NCBI GenBank assembly: GCA_026395055.1
Contig: JAPLZK010000004.1
Coordinates: forward strand, 273,891 to 337,890
Direction: 5' to 3'
Length of the DNA: 64,000 nt
From: Candidatus Uhrbacteria bacterium
GTDB lineage: Bacteria; Patescibacteriota; Patescibacteriia; UBA9934; GWF2-40-263
The translations under genes and the position numbers were made by a program. This document shows positions 22,286 to 64,000 of this stretch, one piece after another. The notes under the pieces are model-generated. The model made no database searches. It worked only from the letters and a program-made list of their open reading frames with translations, and had not been told where the DNA came from. The number at the start of each line of letters is the position of its first letter. The first letter of the stretch is position 1.

Positions 22286-22380
22286 AGGGGCTCCTGATGC
22301 AAGCACTATCTAGTAGGCTCGCGCTGTAGTTTTCCCTTTGCCAATTCGTTCGGCGCAGGAATCCGGGAGTAGGTCGACTC

Positions 22381-22920: not shown

Positions 22921-22952
22921 TCGTCCCTCCTCATGCTATAATTCCAATACTT

Positions 22953-23948: not shown

Positions 23949-24991
23949 AAAAATTTCTTCCTCTTCTTGTCCTTCTCGTGCTTGCGGGTGCGGGTTGTTC
24001 AACAGCCGTCCCAACCGCCAATAAAGCAGACGGTGGTATTTTAAAAACCGTTGATGCCGGAAAAGTTTGGGTTCAAAGTTCTTTGGTTCCAACCGCAAAA
24101 GGAATCGGAACGCTTGCAACCGCAAACATTGTGACCATGGAAATGGATGCACAAGATAAAAATGTTTTATACGTTGGGACACGTGAAGACGGATTTCTTT
24201 ATTCTGACGATGCAGGTGCTTCTTGGCATCAACCAAGAGACAAAGCGTTATCAACAGGATTTATTCCGTCGCTCAAAGTCGATCCAAAAAATGTGTGTAC
24301 GGTTTATGTTGCAAAGGGGCAACGTTTGTACAAGTCTGTAGACTGTATGCGCACCTTCCAAAATGATGCGTACATTGAAAGCCGAGACAAAGTAAATGTC
24401 GTAAAGGTTGCGGTTGATTGGTTTGATCCACAAATTATCTGGATTGGACTTTCAAACGGAGATGTTCAAAAAAGTTTAGATGGTGGAAAGACTTGGAGTA
24501 ATTCGCTTCATGTGAAAGATATCATTACAGATATCCTCATCAACCAATCGGATAGTCGCATGGTGCTTGTTTCTACTTCCTTGAAAGGAATGATGAAAAC
24601 GGGTGATGGTGGTGCAACATGGGCCGCAGCAAATGTTCAAGGCATGAATGGAGCGTTAACGGTTTATGACATGATCCAGTCAAGTAATTCCGCAGTCGTG
24701 ATTGCAACAACAAAATACGGTTTGATTCGCTCAGGAGATTTTGGAGCAACGTGGAGCCCAATCAAACTTGTAAGCGCTCCAGGACAAGTAAACATCCAAG
24801 CGATTGGAATGGACGCCTCAAATCCGGATGTTCTGTATTACGCAACAACTGCTACGTTTTATAAGTCGCAAGACGGCGGAGCAACATGGCAAACGGGAAA
24901 ACTCCCCTCAAATCGCTTACCTCGCGCGATTTTGGTTGACCCAAGTGTGAATACCCTGTTATATATTGGAGTTGCCACGGAAGTGAAATAG
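23945..24991 (+). CDS. Lipoprotein with BNR/Asp-box repeats (Ycf48/sialidase-like beta-propeller)
   Basis: Signal peptide with lipobox LAGAGC. Five S-x-D-G-G-x-T-W Asp-box motifs are present. Confidence 0.7.
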   Translation: MKKFLPLLVLLVLAGAGCSTAVPTANKADGGILKTVDAGKVWVQSSLVPTAKGIGTLATANIVTMEMDAQDKNVLYVGTREDGFLYSDDAGASWHQPRDKALSTGFIPSLKVDPKNVCTVYVAKGQRLYKSVDCMRTFQNDAYIESRDKVNVVKVAVDWFDPQIIWIGLSNGDVQKSLDGGKTWSNSLHVKDIITDILINQSDSRMVLVSTSLKGMMKTGDGGATWAAANVQGMNGALTVYDMIQSSNSAVVIATTKYGLIRSGDFGATWSPIKLVSAPGQVNIQAIGMDASNPDVLYYATTATFYKSQDGGATWQTGKLPSNRLPRAILVDPSVNTLLYIGVATEVK

Positions 24992-48469: not shown

Positions 48470-49804
48470 TTAGGGAATGGACTTCAGTGCCTGATCGAAG
48501 CGTTCGATCGCGGCAATCGTGATTGACGGGTCTTGGGCGTAGGAGAAGCGGATGAAGTTTGGCTGGAGGAACGGAGTGCCGTGTACGACCGCGACTCCGT
48601 GCTCGCAAGCAAGGAAACTGCCGAGGTCTTTGACGGTTTCAATGTGCGTGGTCGTGTGTGCGAGCGCGCCATTGAAGAATTGATCTGGACGCAGAGCGCG
48701 ACCGAGCCATTTGCTTACGTCGACAAAGGCGTAGTAGCCCTGGTCAGCGATGAAGCTGTAGTTGCACGCGGTCATTTCCGTGCGGAAAATCTTGCGACTT
48801 TCCGATGTTGGCTGGGTAATACGTTTCACCCAAGGGTGACTGCGCACGTCTGTGCTTGAGTACACGTAAAACGCACAGGCTTCCGCAAGGACATTGGGCA
48901 ACACGGTGTGTGAGGCAATCCCTTGAATGGATTTTGCGAACGCTTCCGTGCCACATGCAAGGTGTGCCATGCGAACATTGCTTGCGCCAACGGACTTTGT
49001 GAGTCCATCAAGGAGTGTCACACACGCACGATCCTCTTCAGAAAAGCACGACAGAATCTCCGCCCAGTCATAGAGCGGAACGGTATCGTCGATCACGAGT
49101 TGGTACATGAGGTCGATCAGAATGTGCTTGATGCCGTGAAATCGCGCCCGTTGAATGAGAGCTTTGATTTCCTCTGGCGTGTACCAGGTTCCGGTTGGGT
49201 TGTCTGGTGTGGTGATGATGATCGCGTCCGCTTGGCCGCAAAGGCCCATGGCTTCCGTGATGCCGTCAGGTGTCATGCGAAGATCCGTCTTGCTTTGCGC
49301 GGGAGCACAAAGGAGATTGAATCCGTTCACGTAACTACCATGCGCGTAAGAGATCCACGGCGCCGCAGAGGCGATGACTGTCAGACCAATCTTGCCCGTG
49401 CTCATGCAAATGGCCTGATACCATTTTTGAAGCGCATCACGTCCACCATCGCAGACGATGATCTGTTCGATCGAATGGCGAATCTTGTCGAGGTGCCAAT
49501 AGTTTTCGAGGAGAACACCACGAACACGCGGATCTCCATGAGGTTTTCCGTACGCGGTCGTTTGATGTTCGGGCAGAAACATGAGAAGCGCATTTGCAAG
49601 TTCGTCTCGCAAAACGCCGCCGAGCGTTGCTCCGCCGTCGCCTTGCGAGGCGTCAAAGATGCGTGTGCCCGGATGCTGACGCAAATAGACGTCGAGCTCT
49701 GCTTTGATGAGAAACATGTTGGAAGTCGGGATCTGCCGCAGAAAGGCTGTAGCAGATTTGATCCGAGCTTTTTCTGAATCGAACCAACGTGCGAGCTGTG
49801 ACAT
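48470..49804 (-). CDS. PLP-dependent aminotransferase (class I/II fold)
   Basis: About 440 aa, with LDGLTKSVGASNVRMAH matching the SKxxxxxGxR lysine-region pattern of class-I aminotransferases. About 56% GC. Confidence 0.65.
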   Translation of the reverse strand: MSQLARWFDSEKARIKSATAFLRQIPTSNMFLIKAELDVYLRQHPGTRIFDASQGDGGATLGGVLRDELANALLMFLPEHQTTAYGKPHGDPRVRGVLLENYWHLDKIRHSIEQIIVCDGGRDALQKWYQAICMSTGKIGLTVIASAAPWISYAHGSYVNGFNLLCAPAQSKTDLRMTPDGITEAMGLCGQADAIIITTPDNPTGTWYTPEEIKALIQRARFHGIKHILIDLMYQLVIDDTVPLYDWAEILSCFSEEDRACVTLLDGLTKSVGASNVRMAHLACGTEAFAKSIQGIASHTVLPNVLAEACAFYVYSSTDVRSHPWVKRITQPTSESRKIFRTEMTACNYSFIADQGYYAFVDVSKWLGRALRPDQFFNGALAHTTTHIETVKDLGSFLACEHGVAVVHGTPFLQPNFIRFSYAQDPSITIAAIERFDQALKSIP

Positions 49805-49945
49805 GAGAGATTCCTTTGTGTGCTTCGAGAGATGAAGCGCGACAACTATAATAAGGTTGTGAACATTTGTCCACAGGGATACCTCAACTCTTCTTCTTGC
49901 AAAAAAAGAGAGTATACTGTTGGTAACATTGATTTATATTGATAT

Positions 49946-50341
49946 ATGTTTGGAAAAAAGAATACGAAAAAAAAGAAACAGGCAAATATCATGATTGTAG
50001 AAGACGACGCTCTCTTATGTCGTGCTCTTGCGGCGGCCTTTTCCGGAGAAGGGTTTCAAACAGAATGTGTTGGAAATGGATTAGAAGTTGAAGAAGCAGT
50101 AAAAAAACAAGCACCAGATCTTATCTTGCTCGATCTTATTTTGCCGGGACTAGACGGTTTTGCTGTTTTGAAACAATTAAAGTCAGAAACAAAAACGGCT
50201 TCCATTCCTGTTGTGATTATTTCAAACCTAGGTTCCGCGGCAGACGTAAAGTCCGCAAAGTCTCTTGGAGCAGAAGCGTATTTCATTAAAGCCAATTCAG
50301 AAATTTCTCAAATCATTGATTACGTAAAAAACCTTCTTTAA
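49946..50341 (+). CDS. Stand-alone response-regulator receiver domain (CheY-like)
   Basis: IMIVEDD...DLILLDLILPGLDG...VVIISN...K receiver motifs (DD, phospho-acceptor D, T/S, K). Confidence 0.7.
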   Translation: MFGKKNTKKKKQANIMIVEDDALLCRALAAAFSGEGFQTECVGNGLEVEEAVKKQAPDLILLDLILPGLDGFAVLKQLKSETKTASIPVVIISNLGSAADVKSAKSLGAEAYFIKANSEISQIIDYVKNLL

Positions 50342-50347
50342 ACGTGT

Positions 50348-50725
50348 ATGGCAAAAAAAAAGAAACTTATTTTGATTGTCGAAGATGACGAAGTTATTTT
50401 GCGTGCCTTGTATTTAAGTTTTCATGAAGGGGATTTTACGATTGCGACCGCAACAGACGGAGCGTCTGCACTTACCATGACACAACGCATGAAACCAGAT
50501 TTGGTTCTCTTAGATCTTGTTCTGCCTAAAATGTCTGGTTTTGATTATTTGAAAGACATGAAAGCAGATCCTGCAACAAAAGCCATCCCCGTTATCGTTC
50601 TTTCAAATCTTGGTGTGCAAGACAATAAAGAAAAAGCGATGGGGTTGGGTGCAATAGATTATTTTGTGAAGTCAGATACAGATTTGTCTGCACTGGTGCA
50701 AAAAGCAAAAAATATCTTAGCTTGA
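50348..50725 (+). CDS. Stand-alone response-regulator receiver domain (second)
   Basis: LILIVEDDE...DLVLLDLVLPKMSG...VIVLSN...K receiver motifs. Confidence 0.75.
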   Translation: MAKKKKLILIVEDDEVILRALYLSFHEGDFTIATATDGASALTMTQRMKPDLVLLDLVLPKMSGFDYLKDMKADPATKAIPVIVLSNLGVQDNKEKAMGLGAIDYFVKSDTDLSALVQKAKNILA

Positions 50726-50742
50726 TTCATTAGCGTTTATTT

Positions 50743-51570
50743 GTGAGAACAGCTTGGCTCAATTTGATCTTGAGATTATCGAATCAGATTTTCCAGCGAA
50801 AGCAAGTATTGGTTGGACAGGAAGGATTACAGATTGTGGGAAACATTGTTTCCCTCATTGTGTTAGAAATGATTCTGGCAATTGTTTCGTTTCCACTGTA
50901 CCTGAGTGTGGCATCACAAAACGTAACGGCGTTTCTGGAAGAGCGGGGGGCTTATGCAAAAGTTTCGTTCGATTATAAGCTGCGTCGTATTTTGACGCTT
51001 ACAGGTGTTGCCATTATTGCAGCTGTTTGGGCATTGAAACTCGCATTAATTTTACTTGTTCCAACGGTTTTTGGCCCACTTCAGCTTTATCATGTCACAA
51101 ATTTGCGTCCACCAGATCTTTCTGCACAAGAACAACAGGTTATTTTAGAAGAAGCGGGTATTCAAAATGCACGTGCCGTACAAAGTTTGCAAAAGCCGTT
51201 GTTTGAAGGGGTAAAGCGAACATCCGGAAAAGATTTTGCCTTTTATGGAACGGGTGCGCCTAACACCACGCTCGTCTTGTTTTTAACAGATGCGCAAACC
51301 GCTCTATATACAGGAACGGTTGATGCAAAGGGGCAATGGAGTATTGCAAATGAGCAAAAGAAATTCGCTTTGAGTGAAGGGAATCACTCTCTCTCCGCCT
51401 TTAGCTACAACAAAGGAGACGGAACACGTAGTGATTTTGCGGATACACAATATTTCAAAGTTAAAACGACGTGGGCAGATATGCTTGTGAGAAACGTAGA
51501 TGTTCTTGCAAACTGGTCTGTGGTGATTTTGATTGTTCTTGGTGCGTTCTTGGTTTTTCTTACTATTTAG
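50743..51570 (+). CDS. Membrane protein, mini-paralog of the giant surface protein (shares its N-terminal signal/TM region and C-terminal Ig-like domain plus TM anchor)
   Basis: GTG start. The N-terminus MRTAWLNLILRLS..F..KQ resembles MNRSWLNFYLRCS..F..KQ of the giant gene. The C-terminus DAKGQWSIANEQKKFALSEGNHSLSAF resembles DVKGVWTLDHSQQRAELAEGDHSIYAV, followed by a hydrophobic tail. Confidence 0.5.
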   Translation: MRTAWLNLILRLSNQIFQRKQVLVGQEGLQIVGNIVSLIVLEMILAIVSFPLYLSVASQNVTAFLEERGAYAKVSFDYKLRRILTLTGVAIIAAVWALKLALILLVPTVFGPLQLYHVTNLRPPDLSAQEQQVILEEAGIQNARAVQSLQKPLFEGVKRTSGKDFAFYGTGAPNTTLVLFLTDAQTALYTGTVDAKGQWSIANEQKKFALSEGNHSLSAFSYNKGDGTRSDFADTQYFKVKTTWADMLVRNVDVLANWSVVILIVLGAFLVFLTI

Positions 51571-51654
51571 ACAATGATTTCTCATAAATATTTTACCCAT
51601 TTGAGGTGTATCGACATATAGCATTGCCGAAACAGTTCTCATATATCTTTATAT

Positions 51655-54600
51655 ATGAATCGTTCTTGGCTCAATTTTTATCTTCGATGTTCTGGTTTTG
51701 TTTTTAACTTGAAACAAAAAGTCGTCCAGTCAGAAAATTGGATCGTAATTTTACCGTCAGCGATTTTATTGATTGGATCTGAATGTGTTTTATCTCTAAC
51801 GTCATTGCCGCTTTTTTTGTTGGTTTCTCCAGACTCGGTGCAAGAGTCTGGTCTTTTTTTTCCAAAAAAATTGAAAGATAAAAGCGCGTACCAATCATTT
51901 ATGGTGCGACGCAAGATTAGTTTGTTTACGGCAGGTGGAGCGGGCGGAATTTATATCTTGAAGCTATTGATTGTTGGAATTGTCTCCGCCTATTTGTTGG
52001 GAGCAACACCACTTCTTGCCGCTATTCAAAACTGGGATCTCTCAACCGCAGGAAATTATACCTATGATTCTGCAAAGGTGGAGGTGACGGGGGGAGTTGC
52101 ACGGCTAAAAGATTTAGGAAGTTCTGCAAGTGGATCGACTGCAAATAGCAATTTTACTTCGAACTCGACGGGGTGGACGTATGTTCCAAACTGGATTCAT
52201 GGGGGAGGTGGATCAAATTCGGGAAATTATCATGCGGCGAGCGGAAATCCTGGTGGGTATATTGATCTTGATGAGGATGCGCAAAAAAGCAAAACAGAAG
52301 CGTCTTATTGGTATCAGTCATTTGCGACAACAGTAAACTCTCCAGACACAGCAACGATTAGTTTGGATTGGGCGAGCCTAACTGTTGGAACCCTTGCTTC
52401 AACGTATAAGATTTATGTTTTTATTGATACGACAAGTGGAAATCCAACCGTGGGTCAAGAAGTTTGGTCGAGTCCAGAAATTACAAGCACAACACCTTGG
52501 GCAAGTGTGGCACCAATCAGTATTACCGCAAAAGTTCCAACAGCTGGAATGTATTATCTGAAGATCGCTTCAAGAATTTCGCGTACAGCAAGCGGATCGC
52601 TTCGTGAGCATAACGTGACAGGTTGGGACAACGTGATTGTGAACTGGTCAAAGACCACACACAGTTATGATACAAGTTCGCCAACGATCACTCCAACAAC
52701 ATCCCTTACATTGACCGGGACAAAAAGTTGGAATCATTTCACGGAAACATCCACGTTGAATGGCGGATCCATCAATTATCAACTCTCGAGTGATGATGGT
52801 GTGACATGGCAGTATTGGAATGGATCGGCGTGGGCGACGGCAGGCGGTTCGAATGACAATGCCGCGACGGTTGTTGATGCACATATTGCAACGTTTACAA
52901 AAGCCACCAACAAAATAAAATGGAAAGCGTTTCTCACAAGCAGTGGAACACAGCAAGTGATTCTTGATAACGTTGCCGTTGATTACACCGACAACGCATT
53001 GCCGGTCATTTCGAGTGTTTCGCCTGCACAGAGTATAAGTACGGGGCGTGTAGTAATTCCGTACACGTTGACCGATGCGGATAGTGACCCTGCAACATTG
53101 TCGACGTATGAGTATTCACTTACAGGTGCATTCACAGGGGAACAAGTTACGATGACAGCGGCAACAGGGGATCCGTCACATAGCGGAATCTCAGGTCTTA
53201 CGTCATCGCCTGGCGGAACCGCACACACATTTGTTTGGGATGCATTTTCTCAACTCGGTGCGGTATACAACACAACGGTGTATGTCCGATTACGTGCGAA
53301 TGATGGCGTAGGAAATAGTTCTTATGCGGCATCAAGTGTATTCACAGTTGATTATGTGAATCCGGTTGTGTCGAGCGTAACAGCTGCGCAAACGCTTGGA
53401 TCCACAAACGTATCCATTACATATACATTGGCCGACAATACATCGGATAATCTTTTGGTTGAGGTGCAGGCTTCGAGTGATAATGGCGTGACGTGGACCG
53501 TTCCTATTACATCCGTCACGGGTGCTGTTGGTGCAGGACAGTCGACGGGCACAGGAAAAACCATCACGTGGAATGCGGGAACGGATTACACATCGCACGA
53601 ATTAAGCACGATGAAAATTCAGGTGCGTGCAAAAGATAAATACCAAAATCAGGGTTCCTACGTTGCAAGTTCTGCGTTCGCTCTTGATACGCGTGCTGCG
53701 GCTGTGTCAGCGCAGGTGAATCTTCAAGCACAACCAAACGCGGGAGACACTACAGCTCTTCTTGGGGGATCATTCACAGAGATCAATCCAAACACAAATG
53801 ATTTCTACGTTGCTATTGATGGTGGTGCGTACGGAACATCGACTGCGGGAACGGTGAATACCGCATCGCCCGCAAACCAAGCGACGGCTGTTGGTTCAAC
53901 ACTTAGTGGACATGATTACATTTCAAACGTAAAAATTATTCACACAGACGATTTTGGAAACGTGACGTCAAATGAAAATACGTTGCCATCCACTTTGTTT
54001 AAATATGTAAAACCGTACACGCCACTCGCGCCAACACTCTCAAGTCCTCTCACAACGCAATTGAATGTTGTTGTAAATCCAAATGCAAGTGAAGCGTCGG
54101 ATGTTGAGTATGCGATTAATGAAACGAGTACGGGAAAATTCGTCCAAGCAAATGGAACGCTCGGAGCAAGTGCTGTTTGGCAAACAACCGCCGTTTGGGG
54201 AACAAAAATTGTCACGGGACTTTCGTCACCCGTTGCGAATTACATTTTCAAAGTAAAATCACGAAATCCAAACGACGCAGGACATGCAGCTTCTTCTGAG
54301 TCTGCGTATTCGCCAACCGCTCAGATCTCGAACACAGCTCCATCGATTACGCTTGGTTCTATTTCACAAACAACGGATGGAACAAAATATGTCACCATTA
54401 ATTACACGGGAACGGATGTACAAGGAGATATAAACAGTTTGACGGTGTACGAATATTCTCGTGATAACGCAACATGGCACACCATGACAGAAAAGTCTGG
54501 TGTTGGCTCGGAAGGAACTTCGAATCTAACATTTCTTTCTGGAGGAAGTTCCCATAATTTTAAATGGGATATAGGAACAGATCTCGCGGGTGTTGAGGAT

Positions 54601-57600
54601 GCGACGGTGTATGTTCGATTGCGTTCCTCGGATACGCTCGCAACAAGCACATTCACGACTTCATCTGCATTCGAGATCGACACGACTCTTCCTGTTGTCT
54701 CGAGTGTTTCCGCTTCACAAAATTCCGGTGCGCGAATGGTGACGGTTACCTATACATTAACCGATGCGAATAATTCGCTCGTCGATATTGGTATATCAAA
54801 TGACGGCGGATCGACTTGGGCTGTTGCAACAACCACAGCGAGTGGTCACATTGGATCTGGTGTCACACCAGGATCAAAAACAATCACTTGGAATGCAGGA
54901 ACGGATTTTAATACGCAATACAACACAAGCATGCAAGTGCGCGTGCGCGCACGAGATACATTTGGCAATCAAGGAGTTTACGCCTCAACGAGCAGCTTTA
55001 CCGTCGACACACATGCTCCGTCTGTTGCAAACGTAACAGCGGTTCAAGATTCTGGCGCGGACACATTCACATTTCATTACGATGTAAGTGAAGATGCGGG
55101 AAACGTCATGGTTGGTCTTGAAGTCTCGAATGATGGTGGTTCAACATGGGCCACGCCCGTTACGAGTGCGGCGGGAGATATAGGAAGTGGCATCTCGAGC
55201 GGAACAGGAAAAACAATTACCTGGAATGCGGGAACAGATTATAATGGTCACGAAAAAACAACCATGAAGATTCGTGTGACCGCAACAGATGCGTATTCGA
55301 ACACCTCAAATACAAGCTCATCGAACTTCGATCTTGACTCACTTGCTCCACGCGTGACAAGTGTTGCGGCTGTACAAATACTGGGTACAACGAATGTTTC
55401 CATTACGTATACGCTCGCAGATCAAAATAGCTCCCTTGTCGAGATGGATATTTCGAATGACGCAGGTTCAACGTGGACCGTAACGAATACATCGGTCACG
55501 GGAGATATCGGAAGTAGTATTTCGAGTGGAAGTAAAACAATCACCTGGAACGCGGGAGCGGATTACGATGAGCATGCGCAAGCAAACATGCGTGTTCGCG
55601 TGCGTGCGAAAGATATCTTCAATCATCAAAGCGCAAACACGCAATCTGTCAATTACGCACTCGATACGTTGAATCCAGCAACAAATGTAATAGTGGATTT
55701 GCAAGCACAACCAAACGCGGGTGCAACAACTGTTTCCGTCGGCGGATCATTTACAGAAACAAATCCAAACACAAATGATTTTTATGTGGCGATCGACGGA
55801 GGAGATTATGGATCTGTATCTGCAGGAGATACGAATACGGCGTCCCCCTCCAATCATGCAACCTCTGTTGGGGGAACGCTCGACGGAAATGATTACATCT
55901 CAAAGGTGAAGATGGTACACGCGGATGATTATGGACAATCCGTAACAAACGAAAACACTTCGCCTTCTTTTCAATATGTAAAGCCATACACACCTGCAAC
56001 ACCAACCGTTTCTAATCCAACACACGGAACCGTTGATGTCACGGTCACAAAAAATGCGCTTGAAACAGATGGCCTTGAGTACGCAATTTTCGAGACGACA
56101 CAAAATACATATGTCCAAGCAGATGGATCTCTCGACGCAGGTGCGGTTTGGCGCACAACCACGGCATGGGGAACGGAAACGGTACATGGACTTACAAATG
56201 CTTCTTACACCTATCAATTCAAAGTAAAATCACGCAATACCTCTGACGGATTACACGCAGCCTCAAGCGAAAGTGCGCTTTCTGGTGGCGCGTCTTCCGC
56301 AAATCAATCGCCTTCCATTGCGTTGAATACGGTTGCCGAGACCATGGATGCAACAAAGTATGTCACGATCGCCTATACCGGTTCAGATCTCGAGAGTGAA
56401 TCTTCAGCTATTATCACGGCTCAATACTCTCGAGACAACGCGGCGTGGCACACGATGACAGAAAAGTCTGGAGTTGGATCAGATGGAACAACCGGACTCG
56501 CGTTTGCGTATATGGGAACGTCGCATCATTTCATGTGGGACGTTGGAACGGACCTTGCAAATACAGAGGACACAACAACGTATATTCGTCTGCAAGCAAA
56601 TGATGGAACATCAAGTGGATCTGTCGTGACATCGGATGCATTCACGATTGATACAAAGAATCCTGTTGTCTCGAGTGTGGCAGCTGTACAACAAGGCGGA
56701 TCAAACAATGTTATTTTCACCTACACATTAACCGATGCATCTTCAAGTTCGGTTGCACTTGATGTTTCAGATGATGCAGGACTCACGTGGGTGGTTGCAC
56801 AGACAACAACCACAGGGGATGTTGGAGCAAATATTTCCGCAGGCTCGGGAAAATCTATTACTTGGAATCCCGGTGTTGATTTCAGCGGACAAGAACAATC
56901 GGATTTGCGTGTGCGCATTCGGGCAACAGATGATTTTGGAAACGCGGGAGCAAATGCGTCATCTGCAAACTTTACGATCGACACAGAATCACCTCGTATT
57001 TCAAACGTAACAGCCTCACAAGATAGTGGATTAAATACTGTTACGATCCATTACGATATTGCGGATGCAAACACATCGGATGTTGCGATGGATATTTCGG
57101 AAGATAATGGATTAACATGGGGAGTTGCAAAGACGACACTTGCTGGCGCGATCGGCAGCGGCATCTCGACTGGCACAAACAAAACGGTTACATGGAATGC
57201 GGCCACGGATTTTCCAAATCGTGAACAATCCGGAATGATGATTCGTGTTCATGCAACAGATACACATAACAACTTGAGCGGAGACGTTTCTTCCTCTTCA
57301 TTTGGTGTCGACACGCTCGCGCCCGTTATCTCGAACGTTGTTGCTTCACAAACACTCGGATCAAACAATGTAGTCTTCACCTACGATCTATCGGATAGTG
57401 GATCGGTGAACGTTGCACTCGACATCTCGAGTAACAGCGGTTCAACATGGGTTGTGATAGATACATCTGTTACAGGAGCTGTTGGGGCAGGGCAGACAAC
57501 AGGTACATCAAAAACAATCACATGGAACGCAGGAACAGATGCATCAAACACAGATCTTTCCACCATGCGGGTTCGTGTTCGCGGAACAGACGGATTCAAT

Positions 57601-60600
57601 AATGCAAGTTCGAATGTTGAATCATCAGACTTTTTGCTCGATACAAAATCTCCTGTTGTGTTAACCGTGGCAGATTTGGTTTCACAGCCCGTTGCGGGAA
57701 GTTCTGCCGCAACCGTGATCGGATCATTTACAGAAACAAACCCAAACACAAATGATTTCTATGTTGCGATTGATGGCGGAGCCTATAGTCCTGTTTCTGG
57801 TGGAGATGTAAATACGGCATCACCTTCAGGTCACGTCACGCCAATAGGTGCAACGCTTGATGGAAATGATTACATCTCAAAAGTTAAGATTGTTCACACG
57901 GATGATTATGGTCATAGTGTGACAAGTGAGAATACAACGCCTTCCATATCATTTAAATACGTAAAGCCGTACACGCCACAAGCTCCAGGCGTCACGAATC
58001 CACACAACACGACTGTTGATCTCGTTTCCGTGCCAAATGCCGCAGAAACTTCCGGACTTGAGTACGCGATTTACGAAACATCTACATCCAAGTTCGTTCA
58101 AGCAGATGGATCTCTGAGTACGGGTGCTGTATGGCGTACATCCGTTGCATGGGGAACAACAACGGTAACAGGACTTTCCTCGCCCGTTGCGCACTATCAC
58201 TTTGAAGAAAAATCTCGTAACACATCTGATGCGGCACACGCCGTGTCGAGTGAAAGTGATCTGTCTGCCTCAGGATCAATCACAAACTCCGCACCGGTTG
58301 TTTCTATCACGAGTGCTTCACAACAAACTGCATCCAACTACGCATTGATTCAGTACACAGGAACAGATGCGCAGAATGATACAAACAGTCTGACAACATT
58401 TGAGTATTCCACAGACAATTCTGCGTGGCATACCATGACAGAAAAAGCAGGAGTGGGTTCTGATGGAACATCTGGTCTCATCTTTGCTTCTGCGGGAACG
58501 GCTTATACATTTGCTTGGGATATTGCGACAGATCTTCCAAACACAGGAGATCCAACGGTATACGTTCGATTGCAATCAAGTGACACGCTTGCAAGTAGTA
58601 ACATGGAAGCATCTTCTGCGTTTGCCATCGATACGCTCGGTCCGGTTATTTCAAACATTCTTACGAGCCAAATACCAGGAACAAATCTTCTCACGTTTAC
58701 GTACGATTTGGCTGACAGCACTGCGGCAAACAACACCGTTTCGTTGCTGATCTCCTCGGACAGCGGACTGACATGGTCTGTTCCAACAACAACCCTTGTG
58801 GGTGATGTTGGTTCCTCAGTCTCTGCAGGACTTTCTCGAACCGTCACATGGAATGCGGGAACAGATTTCAACAATCAGGAACATTCAACCATGCGTATTC
58901 AGATTCAGGGAACAGATGTGTATGGAAATGCAGGGTCTGCGGTAAGTTCATCAAATTTTACCGTGGATACAAAGGGAGCAGTTGTTTCTGGCGTGACCGC
59001 TGCGCAAGTTGATGGATCAAATACTATCCAAGTGGATTACACATTGAGCGATCTTTCTTCTGGTGGACTTCTTGTAGAGTTCAGTGCGTCGTCGGATAAC
59101 GGATCAACATGGACCGTTCCGGTAAACACGTACACAGGTGAAATGGGAGCCGGACAAACAACAGGAACAAAACAATTTATCTGGAACGCGGGAGTAGATT
59201 TTGCGAACGAAGCACATGCAAACATGAAGGTGCGCGTTCGTGCACTCGACTATTACGGCGATCAAGGTGGATTCACTTCTTCCTCCGCATTTGCTCTTGA
59301 TACAAAAGCTTCCGTTGTCTCGAATGTAACCGCTTCACAAAACAGTGGAGCGCGAACGGTCGCGATCTCGTACGATCTTGCGGATGACACATCTTCCAAT
59401 CTCACAACCGAATTACAAATTTCAGAAGACAACGGAATCAGTTGGACAGTCATTCAGAGTTCTGTAACCGGTGCTGTTGGATCTGGAATCTCAACCGGTT
59501 CTGGAAAAACTATCACATGGGACGCGGGAACAGATTTCAATGGTCAGTTCCAATCAGATATGAAGGTCAGAGTACGTGCGATGGATCGATTCATAAATCA
59601 AGGTGATTATGCCGCATCATCTGCATTCACGGTTGATACAGCGAATCCAGTTGTTTCGAACGTCACAGCTTCGCAAAATACAGGATCAGATCTCGTGACG
59701 ATGCACTATGATCTTGCAGATGGAAGCTCAACGAATCTTACGATAGCTCTTGAGATTTCCTCTGACGGCGGATCAACATGGATCGTCCCAACAACTTCGG
59801 CAACAGGTCATGTTGGATCTGGAATCTCGACCGGTACAGCAAAGACCATCACATGGAATGCGGGAACAGATTTCAATAATCAAGAAATTTCCAATCTGCG
59901 TGTTCAGGTGAAAGCAACTGATCGATTTACAAATGCAGGAAGCTTTGTAAGCTCATCAAATGTAGCGATCGATACAAAAGCTCCGATTACTCTCGCAACC
60001 ACAGATTTGAGTGCGCAACCAAATGCGGGTGATACATTCGTCCTTGTCAGTGGAAGTTTCACAGAATCGCATCCAGACACAAATGACGTCTCGGTTGCGA
60101 TTGATGGAGGAGCATATTACTTACCGTCTGGACTAGACGGAACAGCAAGCGTGACAAACCAAGGTGTTGGAACGGGCGCAACTCTTCGCGGAAACGATTA
60201 CATCTCCAAAGCAAAAATTGTTCACACAGATGTGTTTAATCATGGTGGAACAAATGAGAACACAGCGCTCTCTGCTGCGTTTAAATACGTGAAGCCATAT
60301 ACACCACAACCGTTAACTGTCGAGAATGCGACCGCAAACTCGGTTGATGTAACCGTGAATAAGAATCCGGCGGAAGTTTCCGGACTCGAGTATGCGATCT
60401 TTGAATCGACGACCTCGAAGTACGTCCAAGCAGATGGATCTCTTAATACGAGTGCCGTGTGGCAAACAGGAGCGGTCTGGTCAACGAAAACGGTGAGTGG
60501 ACTTAGTTCTCCGGTTTCAAATTACCTATTTAAGGCAAAATCACGTAATTCTGCGGATGCAGGTCATGCCATCTCGAGTGAAAGCGCTCTTTCATCTGGC

Positions 60601-63600
60601 GCATCTATTGCAGCAACAGCGCCAAGCATTGTGCTGAATTCGTACGGACAAAGTGCCGGAAATGATTACGTTCTCATCAACTACACAGGAATTGATGCGC
60701 AAAATGATATATCGCATCTTGCCACAATGGAGTTTTCTCCAAACAACACAAACTGGTTTCCGATGACAGAAAAAGCGGGAGTGGGAAGTAGTGGAACAAC
60801 CGGACTTGCATTTACTTCATCCGGAGCCGCCTTCGTCTTCGCTTGGGACGCAGCAACAGATCTTTCGCAAGTTGAAGGAGATGTGTATGTCCGACTTGTC
60901 GCAAATGACGGAGCACAAGATGGAGACATTGCCACAAGTTCATCGTTCCCCCTCGATTTGAAAGCTCCGGTCGTCTCGAATGTAAGCGCTTCTCAAAGTG
61001 GACACAACGTGACGGTCACGTATGACGTAGCAGACGTCACTTCAAGTATCGCGGTTGATTTAGAAGTATCTTCTGATAACGGATCAACGTGGACGGTATC
61101 GACTCCATCGGCAACAGGAGCTGTTGGAAGCGGTCAGACAACAGGGGTTGGAAAAACAATTGTCTGGAATGCGGATGTAGATTTTGATGGACAGTTCCAA
61201 TCTGATATGAAGATTCGTGTGCGTGCAACGGACAGCTTCCATCATGAAGGTTCGTTTGCAGAGTCATCTGCATTCACGCTCGACACTGCAAATCCAGTTG
61301 TCTCGAACGTCACGGCTTCACAGCTCCCTTCAAGCGACACTGTGTCCGTCACGTATGATCTTTCCGATGATACGGGAACAGGATTGAATGTCGTGTTCGA
61401 AGTATCGAGTGATAATGGATTAACCTGGACCGTTCCAACAACTTCCGCAACGGGCGCATTTGGATCCGGACAAACAGCGGAGGTTGCAAAAACCATTTCC
61501 TGGAATGCGGGAGCCGATTTCAATCATCACTATTCAACAGGAATGATGGTTCGCGTGCGTGCGACCGATTCGTTCGCGAATGAAGGATTGTACGGAGCAT
61601 CTTCTGCGTTCACCGTCGACACAAACACACCAAGTGTTTCAACTGTCACAGCTGTTCAAAATGCTGGTTCTACAAACGTAAACATTGCGTACGATGCATC
61701 AGATGACACTTCGAATGGACTTACAGTTGCTCTCGAAGTATCGGATGATAATGGATCAACTTGGACGGTGGGAACAACATCTGCAAGTGGATCGGTTGGA
61801 AACGGACAGTCTGTGGGGACAGGAAAAGCCATTGCATGGAACGCAAAACTCGACTTTACAGATCAGTTTAAGTCAGACATGAAGGCGCGTGTACGTGTGA
61901 CGGATGCGTATGGACATGTTCAAACATCGAGCGCATCTTCTGCATTCGGTCTTGATACAACAGATCCGGTCATCTCAAATCTCTCTGTTGCACAAACAGC
62001 AGGATCGAATAATGTAACAATCGGATATGATCTTTCCGATGATACGGCAACAAATCTAGCAATTGCCTTGCAAATCTCAAGTGATGGTGGTTCTACCTGG
62101 ACGGTCACTACAACTTCCGCGACAGGATCTGTCGGAAGTGGGTTCTCGAGTGGTGCAGGAAAAATCATTACATGGGATGCGGGAACAGATTTCGCAAATC
62201 AAGAAGTCTCAAATATGCGTGCACGACTTGTTGGAACGGATGCGTTCTCAAATACAAGTGTGAACACAGATTCAACAAATGTGCTTGTTGATACAAAAGA
62301 CCCTGTTGGTCTTTCAAGTCTGACAAACTTCCTCAACACAAGCACAGCAATTACACTTCACTGGAATTCCGCGAGTGATTTAACTTTTGATCATTACGAA
62401 CTCTGGTTTGGTGAAAATGAGATAGACGTGACGAATCGAACGGGTGCGGCACACAGCTGGGCCGTTTCAGATGATGCAATACTTGCAAACGCACTCACGT
62501 CGTCAACAACGATCGCAGGACTCACGATTACTTCGGATGTCTTTGTCAGAATCTTTGCGGTTGATGCGTATGGACATGTGGTGACAACAGGTGATGTACG
62601 CGTTTCACCTCCAGCCCCACCGGTTCCAATAACGATCGCGGGTGGAGGTGGTGGTAACGGTGGATGTTCTGGAGTTGGATGTGCGCCCGTCCTTCCAACA
62701 CTTCCAGACACGATTCCGCCGACAACTCCAATCGTTTCTACACTTCCATCAACAATGAACGATAAGGCCGTTCTTATAAGCGGACTCGCAGAACAGAGTT
62801 CCATAATTGATCTGTATGATCACGGAACATTGATTCGTCGATTGGCGAATAAAACAACGGCAGACGGGGTGTTTGCAGAAACAATCACGTTTGATGAGGG
62901 AGCGCACGTTCTAACGGTGAAAGCAACAGATGCAGTAGGGAATACGAGTGGATTCTCGGATGCTGTGGCATTTACCGTTGACTTAATGCCTCCTGTGAGT
63001 GTAACGACGCCTGTTATAACAACACCCACAGAAACAGTGGTCGTTTCTCCGCCCGTATCCATTCCGCCACCTGTTCTTGGGCCAACGCTCCTTCCGGCGA
63101 TAACGCCTTCCGCCGCAGCGATTCAGCAGGTTGTGGGTGCGGTCGAGCTTCCAGGACTTCAAGCGCCTGAAATTACGAACGCCGTTGCAACAACAGCCGT
63201 CGCCGTGCCTGCCGCCGGAGTTGCAAATGCTGTTACAGGAACAACGTTCCGATTCAGCGGAACAACCATTCCAAATGCACGCGTAGCCGTTTATCTTCAC
63301 AGTACACAAGCGCTTGTGTATCAAACAACGTCAGACGTAAAAGGTGTGTGGACTCTGGATCATTCACAACAACGTGCTGAGCTTGCAGAAGGGGATCACT
63401 CCATTTACGCCGTAACCATTGATCCAAACGCAAACGTAAAGAGTCACGCAAGTCCAATTCGTATGTTTACCGTGAAAAAGGATTGGCTTGCAGATTTATT
63501 CCAATATCTCAATTTACACACAACGCTTATTACGTTAGGAATATTAATGGTATCCGTTCTTTGGCTCTTTCGCTTAAAGAAAAAAGGGGTAGAACAGGTT

Positions 63601-63603
63601 TAA
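51655..63603 (+). CDS. Giant surface/adhesin-like protein (3982 aa) with hierarchical tandem repeats and C-terminal TM anchor
   Basis: Uninterrupted 11.9-kb ORF with an N-terminal signal-anchor. There are four super-repeats of about 660-775 aa (starting near 53685, 55665, 57645 and 59970). Each contains a QPNAGD...FYVAIDGG module, a SGLEYAI...FKVKSRN module, an EYS.DN..WH.MTEK.GVGS module and several ~100-aa Ig-like PVVSNVTASQ...TW.V...KTITWNAG.DF...MKVRVRA modules. A Pro-rich linker and C-terminal TM follow. Confidence 0.8.
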   Translation: MNRSWLNFYLRCSGFVFNLKQKVVQSENWIVILPSAILLIGSECVLSLTSLPLFLLVSPDSVQESGLFFPKKLKDKSAYQSFMVRRKISLFTAGGAGGIYILKLLIVGIVSAYLLGATPLLAAIQNWDLSTAGNYTYDSAKVEVTGGVARLKDLGSSASGSTANSNFTSNSTGWTYVPNWIHGGGGSNSGNYHAASGNPGGYIDLDEDAQKSKTEASYWYQSFATTVNSPDTATISLDWASLTVGTLASTYKIYVFIDTTSGNPTVGQEVWSSPEITSTTPWASVAPISITAKVPTAGMYYLKIASRISRTASGSLREHNVTGWDNVIVNWSKTTHSYDTSSPTITPTTSLTLTGTKSWNHFTETSTLNGGSINYQLSSDDGVTWQYWNGSAWATAGGSNDNAATVVDAHIATFTKATNKIKWKAFLTSSGTQQVILDNVAVDYTDNALPVISSVSPAQSISTGRVVIPYTLTDADSDPATLSTYEYSLTGAFTGEQVTMTAATGDPSHSGISGLTSSPGGTAHTFVWDAFSQLGAVYNTTVYVRLRANDGVGNSSYAASSVFTVDYVNPVVSSVTAAQTLGSTNVSITYTLADNTSDNLLVEVQASSDNGVTWTVPITSVTGAVGAGQSTGTGKTITWNAGTDYTSHELSTMKIQVRAKDKYQNQGSYVASSAFALDTRAAAVSAQVNLQAQPNAGDTTALLGGSFTEINPNTNDFYVAIDGGAYGTSTAGTVNTASPANQATAVGSTLSGHDYISNVKIIHTDDFGNVTSNENTLPSTLFKYVKPYTPLAPTLSSPLTTQLNVVVNPNASEASDVEYAINETSTGKFVQANGTLGASAVWQTTAVWGTKIVTGLSSPVANYIFKVKSRNPNDAGHAASSESAYSPTAQISNTAPSITLGSISQTTDGTKYVTINYTGTDVQGDINSLTVYEYSRDNATWHTMTEKSGVGSEGTSNLTFLSGGSSHNFKWDIGTDLAGVEDATVYVRLRSSDTLATSTFTTSSAFEIDTTLPVVSSVSASQNSGARMVTVTYTLTDANNSLVDIGISNDGGSTWAVATTTASGHIGSGVTPGSKTITWNAGTDFNTQYNTSMQVRVRARDTFGNQGVYASTSSFTVDTHAPSVANVTAVQDSGADTFTFHYDVSEDAGNVMVGLEVSNDGGSTWATPVTSAAGDIGSGISSGTGKTITWNAGTDYNGHEKTTMKIRVTATDAYSNTSNTSSSNFDLDSLAPRVTSVAAVQILGTTNVSITYTLADQNSSLVEMDISNDAGSTWTVTNTSVTGDIGSSISSGSKTITWNAGADYDEHAQANMRVRVRAKDIFNHQSANTQSVNYALDTLNPATNVIVDLQAQPNAGATTVSVGGSFTETNPNTNDFYVAIDGGDYGSVSAGDTNTASPSNHATSVGGTLDGNDYISKVKMVHADDYGQSVTNENTSPSFQYVKPYTPATPTVSNPTHGTVDVTVTKNALETDGLEYAIFETTQNTYVQADGSLDAGAVWRTTTAWGTETVHGLTNASYTYQFKVKSRNTSDGLHAASSESALSGGASSANQSPSIALNTVAETMDATKYVTIAYTGSDLESESSAIITAQYSRDNAAWHTMTEKSGVGSDGTTGLAFAYMGTSHHFMWDVGTDLANTEDTTTYIRLQANDGTSSGSVVTSDAFTIDTKNPVVSSVAAVQQGGSNNVIFTYTLTDASSSSVALDVSDDAGLTWVVAQTTTTGDVGANISAGSGKSITWNPGVDFSGQEQSDLRVRIRATDDFGNAGANASSANFTIDTESPRISNVTASQDSGLNTVTIHYDIADANTSDVAMDISEDNGLTWGVAKTTLAGAIGSGISTGTNKTVTWNAATDFPNREQSGMMIRVHATDTHNNLSGDVSSSSFGVDTLAPVISNVVASQTLGSNNVVFTYDLSDSGSVNVALDISSNSGSTWVVIDTSVTGAVGAGQTTGTSKTITWNAGTDASNTDLSTMRVRVRGTDGFNNASSNVESSDFLLDTKSPVVLTVADLVSQPVAGSSAATVIGSFTETNPNTNDFYVAIDGGAYSPVSGGDVNTASPSGHVTPIGATLDGNDYISKVKIVHTDDYGHSVTSENTTPSISFKYVKPYTPQAPGVTNPHNTTVDLVSVPNAAETSGLEYAIYETSTSKFVQADGSLSTGAVWRTSVAWGTTTVTGLSSPVAHYHFEEKSRNTSDAAHAVSSESDLSASGSITNSAPVVSITSASQQTASNYALIQYTGTDAQNDTNSLTTFEYSTDNSAWHTMTEKAGVGSDGTSGLIFASAGTAYTFAWDIATDLPNTGDPTVYVRLQSSDTLASSNMEASSAFAIDTLGPVISNILTSQIPGTNLLTFTYDLADSTAANNTVSLLISSDSGLTWSVPTTTLVGDVGSSVSAGLSRTVTWNAGTDFNNQEHSTMRIQIQGTDVYGNAGSAVSSSNFTVDTKGAVVSGVTAAQVDGSNTIQVDYTLSDLSSGGLLVEFSASSDNGSTWTVPVNTYTGEMGAGQTTGTKQFIWNAGVDFANEAHANMKVRVRALDYYGDQGGFTSSSAFALDTKASVVSNVTASQNSGARTVAISYDLADDTSSNLTTELQISEDNGISWTVIQSSVTGAVGSGISTGSGKTITWDAGTDFNGQFQSDMKVRVRAMDRFINQGDYAASSAFTVDTANPVVSNVTASQNTGSDLVTMHYDLADGSSTNLTIALEISSDGGSTWIVPTTSATGHVGSGISTGTAKTITWNAGTDFNNQEISNLRVQVKATDRFTNAGSFVSSSNVAIDTKAPITLATTDLSAQPNAGDTFVLVSGSFTESHPDTNDVSVAIDGGAYYLPSGLDGTASVTNQGVGTGATLRGNDYISKAKIVHTDVFNHGGTNENTALSAAFKYVKPYTPQPLTVENATANSVDVTVNKNPAEVSGLEYAIFESTTSKYVQADGSLNTSAVWQTGAVWSTKTVSGLSSPVSNYLFKAKSRNSADAGHAISSESALSSGASIAATAPSIVLNSYGQSAGNDYVLINYTGIDAQNDISHLATMEFSPNNTNWFPMTEKAGVGSSGTTGLAFTSSGAAFVFAWDAATDLSQVEGDVYVRLVANDGAQDGDIATSSSFPLDLKAPVVSNVSASQSGHNVTVTYDVADVTSSIAVDLEVSSDNGSTWTVSTPSATGAVGSGQTTGVGKTIVWNADVDFDGQFQSDMKIRVRATDSFHHEGSFAESSAFTLDTANPVVSNVTASQLPSSDTVSVTYDLSDDTGTGLNVVFEVSSDNGLTWTVPTTSATGAFGSGQTAEVAKTISWNAGADFNHHYSTGMMVRVRATDSFANEGLYGASSAFTVDTNTPSVSTVTAVQNAGSTNVNIAYDASDDTSNGLTVALEVSDDNGSTWTVGTTSASGSVGNGQSVGTGKAIAWNAKLDFTDQFKSDMKARVRVTDAYGHVQTSSASSAFGLDTTDPVISNLSVAQTAGSNNVTIGYDLSDDTATNLAIALQISSDGGSTWTVTTTSATGSVGSGFSSGAGKIITWDAGTDFANQEVSNMRARLVGTDAFSNTSVNTDSTNVLVDTKDPVGLSSLTNFLNTSTAITLHWNSASDLTFDHYELWFGENEIDVTNRTGAAHSWAVSDDAILANALTSSTTIAGLTITSDVFVRIFAVDAYGHVVTTGDVRVSPPAPPVPITIAGGGGGNGGCSGVGCAPVLPTLPDTIPPTTPIVSTLPSTMNDKAVLISGLAEQSSIIDLYDHGTLIRRLANKTTADGVFAETITFDEGAHVLTVKATDAVGNTSGFSDAVAFTVDLMPPVSVTTPVITTPTETVVVSPPVSIPPPVLGPTLLPAITPSAAAIQQVVGAVELPGLQAPEITNAVATTAVAVPAAGVANAVTGTTFRFSGTTIPNARVAVYLHSTQALVYQTTSDVKGVWTLDHSQQRAELAEGDHSIYAVTIDPNANVKSHASPIRMFTVKKDWLADLFQYLNLHTTLITLGILMVSVLWLFRLKKKGVEQV

Positions 63604-63605
63604 GA

Positions 63606-63640
63606 AAAAGATCACAAAAAACCCATTTAGGGTTTTTTGT
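63606..63640 (+). terminator. Rho-independent terminator (AAAAAACCC attta GGGTTTTTTG)
   Basis: Hairpin plus T-run after the giant gene stop. Confidence 0.7.
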
Positions 63641-63836
63641 TATCCACAGATCCTGACGTGTTCTTTTAACAAAAAAATGATATGATCGTTTCGTAATGAT
63701 TCAATTCTTTCTGTCGATGCAGAAAGACTTTATTTATATAATAAAAACTAAAAGAGTCCTTTAATTTGTATTTCATTGCAGGCGATTTTTGTACGAGTCG
63801 ATAACGTATAAGAAAAACGCGGTTATGGAGTAAAAA

Positions 63837-64000
63837 ATGCTTATGAATACCGTTCGATTAGGTTTAAAAAATTTCACCACCGCTCTATTGGCGGTTGCTG
63901 TTGTAGCAAGCATGCTTGTAATCATGCAACCTCAAGCAGCCAATGCAGCTTTGACACTCACGATTAATGTGGCGCCAGGTCCTGCTGTTCCTCGAATTGT
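63837..64000 (+). CDS. Secreted protein, N-terminal fragment (continues beyond the window)
   Basis: GGAG SD 8 nt upstream of the ATG. Signal peptide LLAVAVVASMLVIMQPQAANA. No stop before the window end. Confidence 0.4.
   Translation, partial: MLMNTVRLGLKNFTTALLAVAVVASMLVIMQPQAANAALTLTINVAPGPAVPRI

Follow-up and report, generated by a model that had tools for sequence, protein, structure and literature searches.

What keeps two receiver-only response regulators, a small membrane protein and a surface protein of nearly four thousand residues together in one gene order, and what would such an assembly do for a bacterium with a small genome? The question is posed by a locus at the end of a stretch of 64,000 nucleotides (hereafter the window) on contig JAPLZK010000004.1 of a Candidatus Uhrbacteria assembly, in which the genes for two CheY-like receivers, termed RR1 and RR2, are followed by those for a 275-residue membrane protein (mini) and a 3982-residue protein (giant). 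A large part of bacterial diversity is made up of Patescibacteria, the majority of which are thought to live attached to other cells, while very little is known of how they attach, sense and respond. The cassette is a conserved and bioinformatically well-defined candidate for a part in these processes. The architecture and the conservation described below are, taken alone, hardly in doubt; with regard to function, the cassette is read here as a signal-controlled attachment or envelope tether, and for the full chain from kinase to surface switch a probability of about 45% appears appropriate. No description of the cassette was found in the literature, and in the 'Giant genes' preprint the Candidate Phyla Radiation is mentioned only in passing, so that the cassette appears to be undescribed.

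Organization and distribution of the cassette

The cassette and its presumed control elements comprise the following features.

49825-49852, plus strand: sigma-70-like promoter candidate, 10 of 12 consensus matches, not above shuffle expectation
49946-50341, plus strand: RR1, single-domain CheY-like receiver, 131 amino acids (aa), always the first gene of the cassette
50348-50725, plus strand: RR2, single-domain CheY-like receiver, 125 aa, always the second gene
50743-51570, plus strand: mini, 275 aa, GTG start; N-terminal peptide, two hydrophobic segments, short linker, Ig-like domain and C-terminal transmembrane (TM) segment; paralog of the two ends of the giant
51655-63603, plus strand: giant, 3982 aa, intact open reading frame (ORF)
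63614-63640, no strand assigned: hairpin with an 11-pair stem and A/T runs on either side, just 3' of the giant stop codon

The original prediction, made from the letters of the window, had described four ORFs in one co-directional block, and they were recovered at exactly those positions, all on the plus strand. The genes are separated by 6, 17 and 84 bp (RR1/RR2, RR2/mini and mini/giant, respectively), and a divergent intergenic region of 141 bp lies upstream of RR1. Judged from this spacing, the promoter-like site and the hairpin, the block most probably behaves as a single operon, with the hairpin as its likely terminator; the scan placed the latter formally on the minus strand, but the hairpin is symmetric. 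The GTG start of mini is backed by full-length orthologs of 272-275 aa. In public records RR1 (MCX6715382.1) and RR2 (MCX6715383.1) are both named 'response regulator' by NCBI, the giant is identical to MCX6715385.1, 'hypothetical protein NTX72_06275', and mini, likewise named 'hypothetical', is 100% identical to NTX72_06270, encoded on a 339-kb contig of a Candidatus Uhrbacteria metagenome-assembled genome (MAG), which bears out the earlier assignment of the window to a small-genome organism, a Patescibacterium.

A profile of mini searched against 1.84 billion cluster representatives retrieved 739 proteins at E ≤ 1e-3, 317 of them at E ≤ 1e-10, which fall into three groups: many proteins of mini type with 255-285 aa, giants of 909-5686 aa in which either end is matched, and unrelated proteins sharing only Ig repeats. 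The same profile identified 43 loci among species-representative genomes, distributed over Candidatus Uhr-, Magasanik-, Buchanan- and Falkowbacteria and unclassified Patescibacteria, some of the loci residing in MAGs mislabelled as Gammaproteobacteria. Taking these 43 species-level genomes together with metagenome contigs, the order RR1-RR2-mini-giant is kept in essentially every locus with sufficient flanking sequence, in about 40 species, and the large protein that follows mini carries mini-like ends.

Individual loci depart from this picture in detail. At positions 10001-12117 of locus L046, RR1 and RR2 are followed by a shortened mini (227 aa) that abuts a 478-residue histidine kinase. The mini gene of L037 (10001-10823) and the giant genes of L024 (2625-12231), L043 (5234-10743) and L018 (10833-21154) are each split into two ORFs, which could reflect frameshifts, sequencing errors or real pseudogenisation.

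Receivers and kinases

The original prediction had placed two single-domain receiver genes at the start of the block, and this is what was found: both proteins match PF00072 only, with 75 (RR1) and 81.6 bits (RR2) against a cut-off of 30.2 bits. They are 39% identical to each other, the receiver fills the whole of either chain, and an output domain, be it DNA-binding or enzymatic, is absent. The motifs EDD, LLD, SN and (I/V)K occur in both, an aromatic residue can be assigned from sequence to the position of CheY Tyr106, and the acidic pair, the phospho-acceptor aspartate, the serine/threonine and the lysine are kept in at least 95% of the orthologs (n = 43 for RR1, n = 45 for RR2). NCBIfam returned merely the receiver parts of larger regulators, all far under their cut-offs. 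By sequence, RR1 and RR2 are bona fide members of PF00072, of the single-domain class, with predicted catalytic residues intact, and they resemble CheY, DivK, PilH and CpdR in being receiver-only proteins with an intact phosphorylation pocket. In contrast to the CheY class they lie outside a chemotaxis cluster and form a fixed tandem in front of two membrane proteins; assignment of the locus to such a cluster was considered and rejected, as genes for CheA, CheW and methyl-accepting chemotaxis proteins (MCP) were not found.

Without an output domain the receivers should act through protein-protein contact or within a phosphorelay, and without a DNA-binding domain any phospho-relay control of the surface protein cannot be direct transcriptional control. 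The earlier suggestion of such control thus survives in part: the link between receivers and surface protein is strongly supported by strict synteny in some 40 species, whereas direct transcriptional regulation has to be given up.

In agreement with the earlier statement, no histidine kinase was detected in the 64-kb window (kinase hidden Markov models (HMMs) with filters off, best E 0.36), of which only 397 bp are visible downstream of the giant. The classical two-component arrangement, with a HisKA/HATPase_c gene beside the regulators, is consequently not seen in the window, while many relatives possess it. In most informative relatives a kinase lies directly after the giant or directly before RR1: a HisKA-HATPase_c kinase begins within about 12 bp of the giant in six loci (L020, L023, L025, L036, L039, L040), about 40 bp to 1 kb after it in L026 and L015, after it in L002 and convergently in L001, while in L017, L021, L033, L044 and L045 a kinase is found at most 1 kb upstream of RR1. 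These linked kinases are built as 5-7xPAS-HisKA-HATPase_c, and as the PAS domains start at the N-terminus and Pfam finds no further domain, the arrangement points to soluble cytoplasmic sensors. A third single-domain receiver often follows the linked kinase, and a DNA-binding regulator is not part of the conserved gene set in the relatives' loci. The description of RR1 and RR2 as orphan regulators can hence not be upheld for the family: with a multi-PAS kinase adjoining the cassette in most informative relatives, they are presumably orphan only locally.

The place that the PAS kinase holds in most relatives is occupied in the window by an ORF (63838-64000, plus strand) that starts 235 bp past the giant and leaves the window; its beginning (MLMNTVRLGLKNFTTALLAVAVVASMLVIMQPQAANA) resembles a signal peptide or TM segment. 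An exact scan of JGI metagenomes for the DNA of the window gave no match, and a search with mini led only to a Logan contig of 1.2 kb.

The shared anchors of mini and giant

The two membrane proteins have their ends in common, as delineated by the following modules.

50743-51096, plus strand: mini N-anchor module, aa 1-118, paralogous to giant aa 1-112 (BLASTP, hhalign)
51205-51567, plus strand: mini Ig-like domain and C-terminal TM segment, aa 155-275, with a paralogous counterpart in the final ~136 aa of the giant
51655-52029, plus strand: giant N-anchor, aa 1-125, conserved N-terminal peptide and two hydrophobic segments
63235-63579, plus strand: giant terminal Ig domain (Big_13, aa 3861-3949), TM segment (aa 3951-3975) and KKKG tail, paralogous to the C-terminal end of mini

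The paralogy proposed in the original prediction held on formal alignment. In BLASTP, mini 1-106 is 29% identical to giant 1-110 (E 7e-9) and mini 161-248 is 33% identical to giant 3861-3949 (E 3e-11), and family profiles compared by hhalign give probabilities of 98.9% (E 2e-17) and 99.1% (E 6e-19) for the N- and C-terminal ends. The two shared modules are separated by ~40 residues in mini versus ~3700 in the giant. The terminal domain of the giant just exceeds the Pfam cut-off for Big_13 (PF19077; 27.2 versus 27 bits); the Ig domain of mini, with 17.7 bits, stays below it and is assigned through its homology to the giant domain in hhalign. Weak sequence matches of this terminal Ig domain lead to MpAFP RII, Bap Ig repeats and the NCBIfam Ca_tandemer.

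It had been left open whether mini is the ancestral scaffold of the giant or a deletion product of it. Mini has a fixed length of 272-275 aa and ~36 invariant residues, many of them in the N-terminal peptide, the first hydrophobic segment and the loop that follows (within the N-anchor they include W5, L6, N14, K20, E42, S49, P51, L52, Y53, D77, Y78, R81 and R82), and it occurs together with the giant in nearly every genome examined. These features speak against a deletion product, and mini is, by all sequence indications, an old fixed-length partner of the giant.

Both proteins possess three hydrophobic segments, located at ~28-58, ~85-120 and the C-terminus (~27-58, 82-116 and 251-275 in mini). 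The N-terminal peptide contains four Lys/Arg versus one Asp/Glu, and the loop between the first two segments five to seven Lys/Arg versus three Asp/Glu. As both are net positive, both are probably cytoplasmic, which would make the first hydrophobic segment, a stretch of 31 residues with an invariant glutamate and an invariant proline, re-entrant. The KKKG tail and the extracellular type of the domains suggest that the bulk of the giant is extracellular. Held in the membrane at both ends, it would either be arranged as a long loop or stretch along the cell surface; FN3 and Ig domains measure 3.5-4.5 nm each, from which a contour length of ~115-150 nm is estimated.

Domain architecture of the giant

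Between its anchors the giant is an array of ~33 β-sandwich domains. By-eye comparison yielded four module types, A to D, from which HMMs were built and the protein parsed into the string DA-BCDAAA-BCDAAA-BCDAAAA-BCDAAAA. The segments are as follows.

52030-52659, plus strand: N1 head, aa 126-335, predicted carbohydrate-binding-module-like (CBM-like) β-jelly-roll
52660-52989, plus strand: N2, aa 336-445, β-sandwich with an Asp-box (SSDDGVTW) at aa 378
52975-53670, plus strand: leader pair D0-A0, aa 441-672 (hmmsearch)
53671-55647, plus strand: super-repeat 1 (SR1), aa 673-1331, B-C-D-A-A-A
55648-57624, plus strand: SR2, aa 1332-1990, B-C-D-A-A-A
57625-59955, plus strand: SR3, aa 1991-2767, B-C-D-A-A-A-A
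59956-62274, plus strand: SR4, aa 2768-3540, B-C-D-A-A-A-A (SR2 to SR4 from chunked BLASTP, module HMMs and tree)
62275-62634, plus strand: FN3-like domain, aa 3541-3660, weak Pfam fn3 match (E 0.04, 14.6 bits), followed by a Gly/Cys linker
62722-63024, plus strand: Ig-like domain of Big_6/Big_13 type, aa 3690-3790 (Pfam E 1.4e-5 and 4.2e-5, just under the cut-offs), joined to the terminal Big_13 domain by a Pro-rich linker

The four super-repeats, each of at least six ordered sub-modules, that had been read from the sequence were thereby recovered as B-C-D-A-A-A(-A). The module matches range from E 1e-43 to 1e-61, the divergent D0 excepted (441-561, E 1.5e-20); its companion A0 (561-672) matches with E 4.7e-49, and the D0-A0 pair is present in all orthologs, including those without any super-repeat. 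BLASTP of the whole protein against itself produced only the self-match, and the repeat diagonals, with periods of ~658, 659 and 775 aa and 49-55% identity, emerged when the sequence was searched in chunks. The ectodomain is acidic, rich in Thr, Ser, Ala, Val and Gly and almost free of cysteine: the four cysteines of the giant are found at aa 12 and 44 in the N-anchor and at aa 3671 and 3676 in the Gly/Cys linker.

With regard to folds, the predicted structure of N1 is a jelly-roll superposable on characterized CBMs, and N1 may be described as a CBM- or adhesin-like head. Its structural matches comprise CBM4/11/16/22/27/61, the cleaved-adhesin domain of gingipains, Streptococcus Epf, MAM and the reelin subrepeats, all at 8-15% identity; unlike the CBMs it has no Pfam or CAZy-type family match and no glycoside hydrolase domain attached. 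The predicted B-C-D block consists of FN3-like beads with the FN3-type β-sandwich fold, resembling titin tandems, and the C modules have no match to Pfam PF00041 (fn3). Both predictions rest on shallow alignments, of 10 and 12 sequences. The Asp-box S-x-D-x-G-x-T-W occurs 16 times, once in N2 and once in each of the 15 A modules, which explains the Pfam match of the whole giant to Reelin_subrepeat-B (31.9 bits, cut-off 27); Pfam BNR reaches only 12.5 bits.

Several familiar modes of secretion and anchoring were considered and rejected. The giant contains no GGxGxDxUx motif and no HemolysinCabind match, and no genes for an ABC transporter, membrane fusion protein (MFP) or TolC flank the cassette, which disposes of RTX/type I secretion. 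Sortase anchoring fails as well, since the C-terminus is a plain TM segment with KKKG and a single LPXTG-like string occurs, in the interior of the protein (LPNTG at aa 2294). An SLH or other S-layer anchoring domain was not found by Pfam in the whole giant or its pieces. A PDB sequence search with the giant gave no match, and none of the four proteins scored above a cut-off in NCBIfam. With the exception of the terminal Ig domains, where Big_13 is at the cut-off, the modules of the membrane proteins appear on sequence comparison to lie outside described families.

Relatives of the head occur elsewhere. Word-indexed protein searches with N1-N2 and with B-C-D returned nine fragments each, and giants appear under-represented in the index. 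A 499-residue protein from a Logan contig (P0127) joins a type IV pilin-like leader (RGFGLIEIVV) to N1/N2-like domains (37% identity, E 1e-23), an N2-like domain is linked with PF09343 in P0128, and Laminin_G_3 is present in P0129, so that the head module has apparently been reused in other surface structures. The fusion to a pilin leader in P0127 is consistent with an extracellular binding head.

Age and conservation of the super-repeats

The super-repeats had been estimated at roughly 80-90% nucleotide identity; the blastn measurement is 64-70%. Pairs of A modules do not exceed 64.9% nucleotide identity (38-60% at the protein level), the B-C-D blocks within the window are 54-58% identical as proteins, the longest exact repeat in the giant gene is 28 nt, and Tandem Repeats Finder reports nothing for 49000-64000, the periods being above 500 bp and the identity too low.

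In a neighbour-joining tree of B-C-D blocks, all SR1, all SR2, all SR3 and all SR4 group by position across the candidate phyla Uhr-, Magasanik- and Buchananbacteria, the SR4 of the window, for example, falling into a clade with those of L010 and L014. Orthologous blocks in other species are 61-76% identical to those of the window and thus closer than the paralogous blocks within it, so that the duplications should predate the divergence of the lineages, each position having been kept separately ever since. The super-repeat duplications are, on this evidence, to be regarded as ancient and not recent. Two independent assemblies of related species, L051 (JGI) and L052 (ENA), encode giants of 4058-4059 aa that are collinear with the window protein (73-76% identity over 3300 aa) and share its module string as far as the loci extend. 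Low repeat identity, the 28-nt limit and the agreement of these assemblies make a collapse of repeats very unlikely, and the earlier concern over recent, collapse-prone repeats can be laid aside.

Super-repeat number, for which a survey had been advised, varies between lineages. Giants parse as DA-(BCDAAA)n, with n = 0, 1, 3, 4 or 6 depending on the lineage. Giants with n = 0 (~1000-2400 aa) form the most numerous class among clusters at 50% identity, while n = 3 (~3000-3260 aa) is commonest among genome loci; n = 1 corresponds to ~1650-1980 aa, n = 4 is found in the window and its closest relatives, and n = 6 in a single protein of 5686 aa. Along these lines, the number of A modules per super-repeat changes between related lineages, SR3 containing seven in L010 and L004/L014 versus four in the window and in L051/L052, and the super-repeat positions are nonetheless ancient.

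Compared with 14 other species, the window proteins are 50-77% (RR1), 56-75% (RR2) and 41-74% (mini) identical, the giant N-anchor 31-72% and N1-N2 46-58%; SR1 is 60-74% identical in species with at least three super-repeats. The ectodomain repeats are thus as conserved as the cytoplasmic regulators, a sign of strong purifying conservation that would not be expected of a variable host-specific adhesin.

Proposed mechanism and alternative explanations

From these observations a signal-controlled tether can be pictured, in which control would be exerted post-translationally. A cytoplasmic PAS kinase, encoded elsewhere in the genome or just past the window, would phosphorylate RR1 and RR2. Lacking a DNA-binding output, these would in all likelihood work through contact with other proteins, for which the highly conserved, positively charged N-terminal peptide and first loop common to mini and giant are the most plausible sites; this contact between regulator and anchor is a proposal. 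The state of the cell interior would in this manner switch the surface tether in its conformation, assembly or exposure, i.e. provide inside-out control. The CBM-like head might bind a glycan on a partner cell, a substrate or the cell's own envelope, and the tether would probably serve either to attach the cell, guided by glycans, to a partner cell or a substrate, or to space and scaffold the envelope. A bolder version, in which the cassette would be a hitherto unrecognized device for inside-out signalling confined to a single branch of the Patescibacteria, with phosphorylated receivers docking on the shared peptide and switching a ~120 nm tether with a glycan-binding head between states, is unlikely as a whole. 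The states could be, for example, attachment to and release from a host cell, and the cassette would then be a functional analogue of integrin-type or LapD-type control with entirely different parts.

Several observations weigh against a signal-controlled tether. The complete 896-kb chromosome of L046 (OW818634.1) keeps RR1-RR2-mini-kinase with no adjacent giant; in some lineages the giant may be dispensable or located elsewhere, and it is perhaps not the only or the essential output. In the genome of the window no kinase is seen within 50 kb upstream or 0.4 kb downstream of the cassette, and in L006 the giant is followed by a gene for a major facilitator superfamily transporter and by no kinase. 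The likeness of N1 to CBMs is one of fold only, at the low identity given above. The topology is ambiguous, since a net-positive peptide and a net-positive loop require either a re-entrant first segment or an N-terminus outside. Finally, the very high conservation and the fixed domain number would suit a structural ruler, or a role in the envelope, no less than they suit adhesion.

The last point leads to the best-placed alternative, namely that the giant serves the envelope constitutively, as a ruler, a spacer or a scaffold of S-layer type, with mini as co-anchor and the number of domains setting an envelope dimension, while the receivers are merely co-transcribed and serve as phosphate sinks or shuttles for a PAS kinase that steers another process. 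Ectodomain repeats conserved like cytoplasmic proteins, super-repeat positions kept individually over deep divergence as in the A-band super-repeats of titin, size classes that recur at n = 0, 1 or 3, and the acidic, nearly cysteine-free composition are all what such a scaffold would predict, and anchoring at both ends suits an element parallel to the surface. On the other hand, an invariant adjacency of the four genes with gaps of a few bp in ~40 species is unusual for functionally unrelated genes, no SLH or known S-layer anchoring domain was found, the CBM/adhesin-like head suggests ligand binding, and the variation from 0 to 6 super-repeats between lineages weakens a universal ruler. As a whole this explanation is considered less probable than the signal-controlled tether, although it has to be taken seriously.

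Far less survives of the view, close to that of the original prediction, that the locus encodes a rapidly evolving host-attachment adhesin whose reach or antigenicity is tuned by recent repeat change, with mini as a deletion derivative and orphan regulators that control transcription. Patescibacteria include many episymbionts, the giant is a large repetitive surface protein with an adhesin-like head, and its A-module number differs between fairly close relatives (four in SR3 here, seven in L010). A repeat identity of only 64-70% in nucleotides, positional orthology of each super-repeat across candidate phyla and high cross-species conservation largely refute this reading, as far as sequence comparison can tell; moreover, mini is ancient and nearly invariant in length, the receivers have no DNA-binding domain, and kinases adjoin the cassette in relatives. 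What stands of the predicted host-attachment locus is the adhesive role, made plausible by the head; a variable, host-specific character fits poorly with SR1 conservation across species with at least three super-repeats. As a whole this explanation is judged improbable.

Still more remote is a motility or contractile surface machine, with the giant as a membrane-anchored 'leg' or track adhesin switched by CheY-like proteins, comparable in concept to the Gli proteins of Mycoplasma mobile or to SprB of Flavobacterium. The giant is a TM-anchored repetitive surface protein, a multi-PAS kinase could supply the input, and direct binding is the classical way in which single-domain CheY-like regulators govern motility organelles, flagella and type IV pili both being switched by CheY-like proteins. 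However, the cassette, whether that of the window or that of any of 50 loci, is devoid of genes for a motor, an ATPase or CheA/CheW/MCP, and its proteins do not resemble Gli or SprB in sequence, the Pfam, NCBIfam and PDB searches having given nothing of that kind, so that this alternative is very unlikely. An assembly artefact, in which the 3982-codon ORF or its repeat number stems from mis-assembly or collapse of near-identical repeats, would be the general risk of repetitive genes in a short-read MAG, but with A modules at no more than 64.9% identity, an uninterrupted ORF and the collinear L051 and L052 giants it is, like a recent expansion, effectively excluded.

Relation to known systems

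Within the signal-controlled tether favoured here, the closest functional parallels are the giant adhesins. Region II of MpIBP/MpAFP from Marinomonas, SiiE from Salmonella, LapA from Pseudomonas and staphylococcal Bap, all built from Ig-like repeats, are likewise tandems of β-sandwiches several thousand residues long with a ligand-binding module near one end, and retention of LapA is set from inside the cell via LapD/LapG, which offers a conceptual parallel to the proposed inside-out control. The differences are considerable: RTX repeats and, in the surrounding genes examined, type I secretion genes are missing; the giant is anchored by hydrophobic segments at both ends, whereas these adhesins are held back in an outer-membrane pore; in place of near-identical tandems it has heterogeneous repeats in a set order, which are ancient and highly conserved; and its coupling is to CheY-like receivers with a PAS kinase where that of LapA is to cyclic di-GMP, with mini as a conserved paralogous partner. 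By analogy, the cassette would work most like the inside-controlled Ig-repeat adhesins of the LapA/LapD/LapG type, yet it lacks their RTX, type I secretion and cyclic di-GMP features.

The domain hierarchy is closest, again by analogy, to the A-band super-repeats of titin, a likeness at the level of fold with 13-18% identity that does not imply common ancestry. Unlike titin, the giant is bacterial and extracellular, includes Asp-box sandwiches and has no kinase or myosin-binding role. Gli349 and Gli521 of Mycoplasma mobile, a wall-less or reduced bacterium, are likewise TM-anchored surface proteins of very large size whose genes stand in tandem; no sequence or domain similarity to the giant was detected and motor genes are missing, so that the comparison is conceptual only.

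Among giant repetitive surface proteins, the unusual features of the cassette are two-end anchoring with a mini partner, ancient super-repeats kept by position, and the coupling to CheY-like proteins and a PAS kinase. The super-repeats provide a rare bacterial case of a titin-like hierarchical domain architecture, and through synteny a signal-transduction module, consisting of a PAS kinase with two or three CheY-like proteins, is hard-wired to the giant at the cell surface and its partner mini. If regulator and anchor were indeed coupled, this would constitute a new output mode for two-component signalling, and the giant would offer a handle on the surface of uncultivated ultra-small bacteria via antibodies, landmarks in cryo-electron tomography and binding assays.

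Other features of the window

A RecQ helicase gene (44814-46967, minus strand) lies a few kb upstream of the cassette, as it does in the closest JGI relative (the P0004 locus); local synteny in this Uhrbacteria subclade thus extends beyond the cassette, which is not the case in more distant lineages. Further upstream, a region of ~5.5 kb (17300-22900) has a GC content of 0.54-0.58 versus ~0.45 elsewhere and almost no convincing protein ORFs, with the exception of a 401-residue ORF at 20246-21451 (minus strand) without Pfam match. No rRNA or other Rfam family was found in this region, in which long hairpins at ~19970-20078 and 22850-22931 weakly match models of miRNA precursors; the region may represent DNA of foreign or mobile origin, or else a large non-coding element. 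Two more predicted surface or secreted proteins are encoded in the window, a 348-residue BNR/Asp-box protein of Sortilin-Vps10/YCF48-like propeller type (23945-24991, plus strand) and a 667-residue protein with CHB_HEX_C_1 and Fn3_assoc repeats (35139-37142, plus strand), and a DUF4012 protein is located at 12171-14273.

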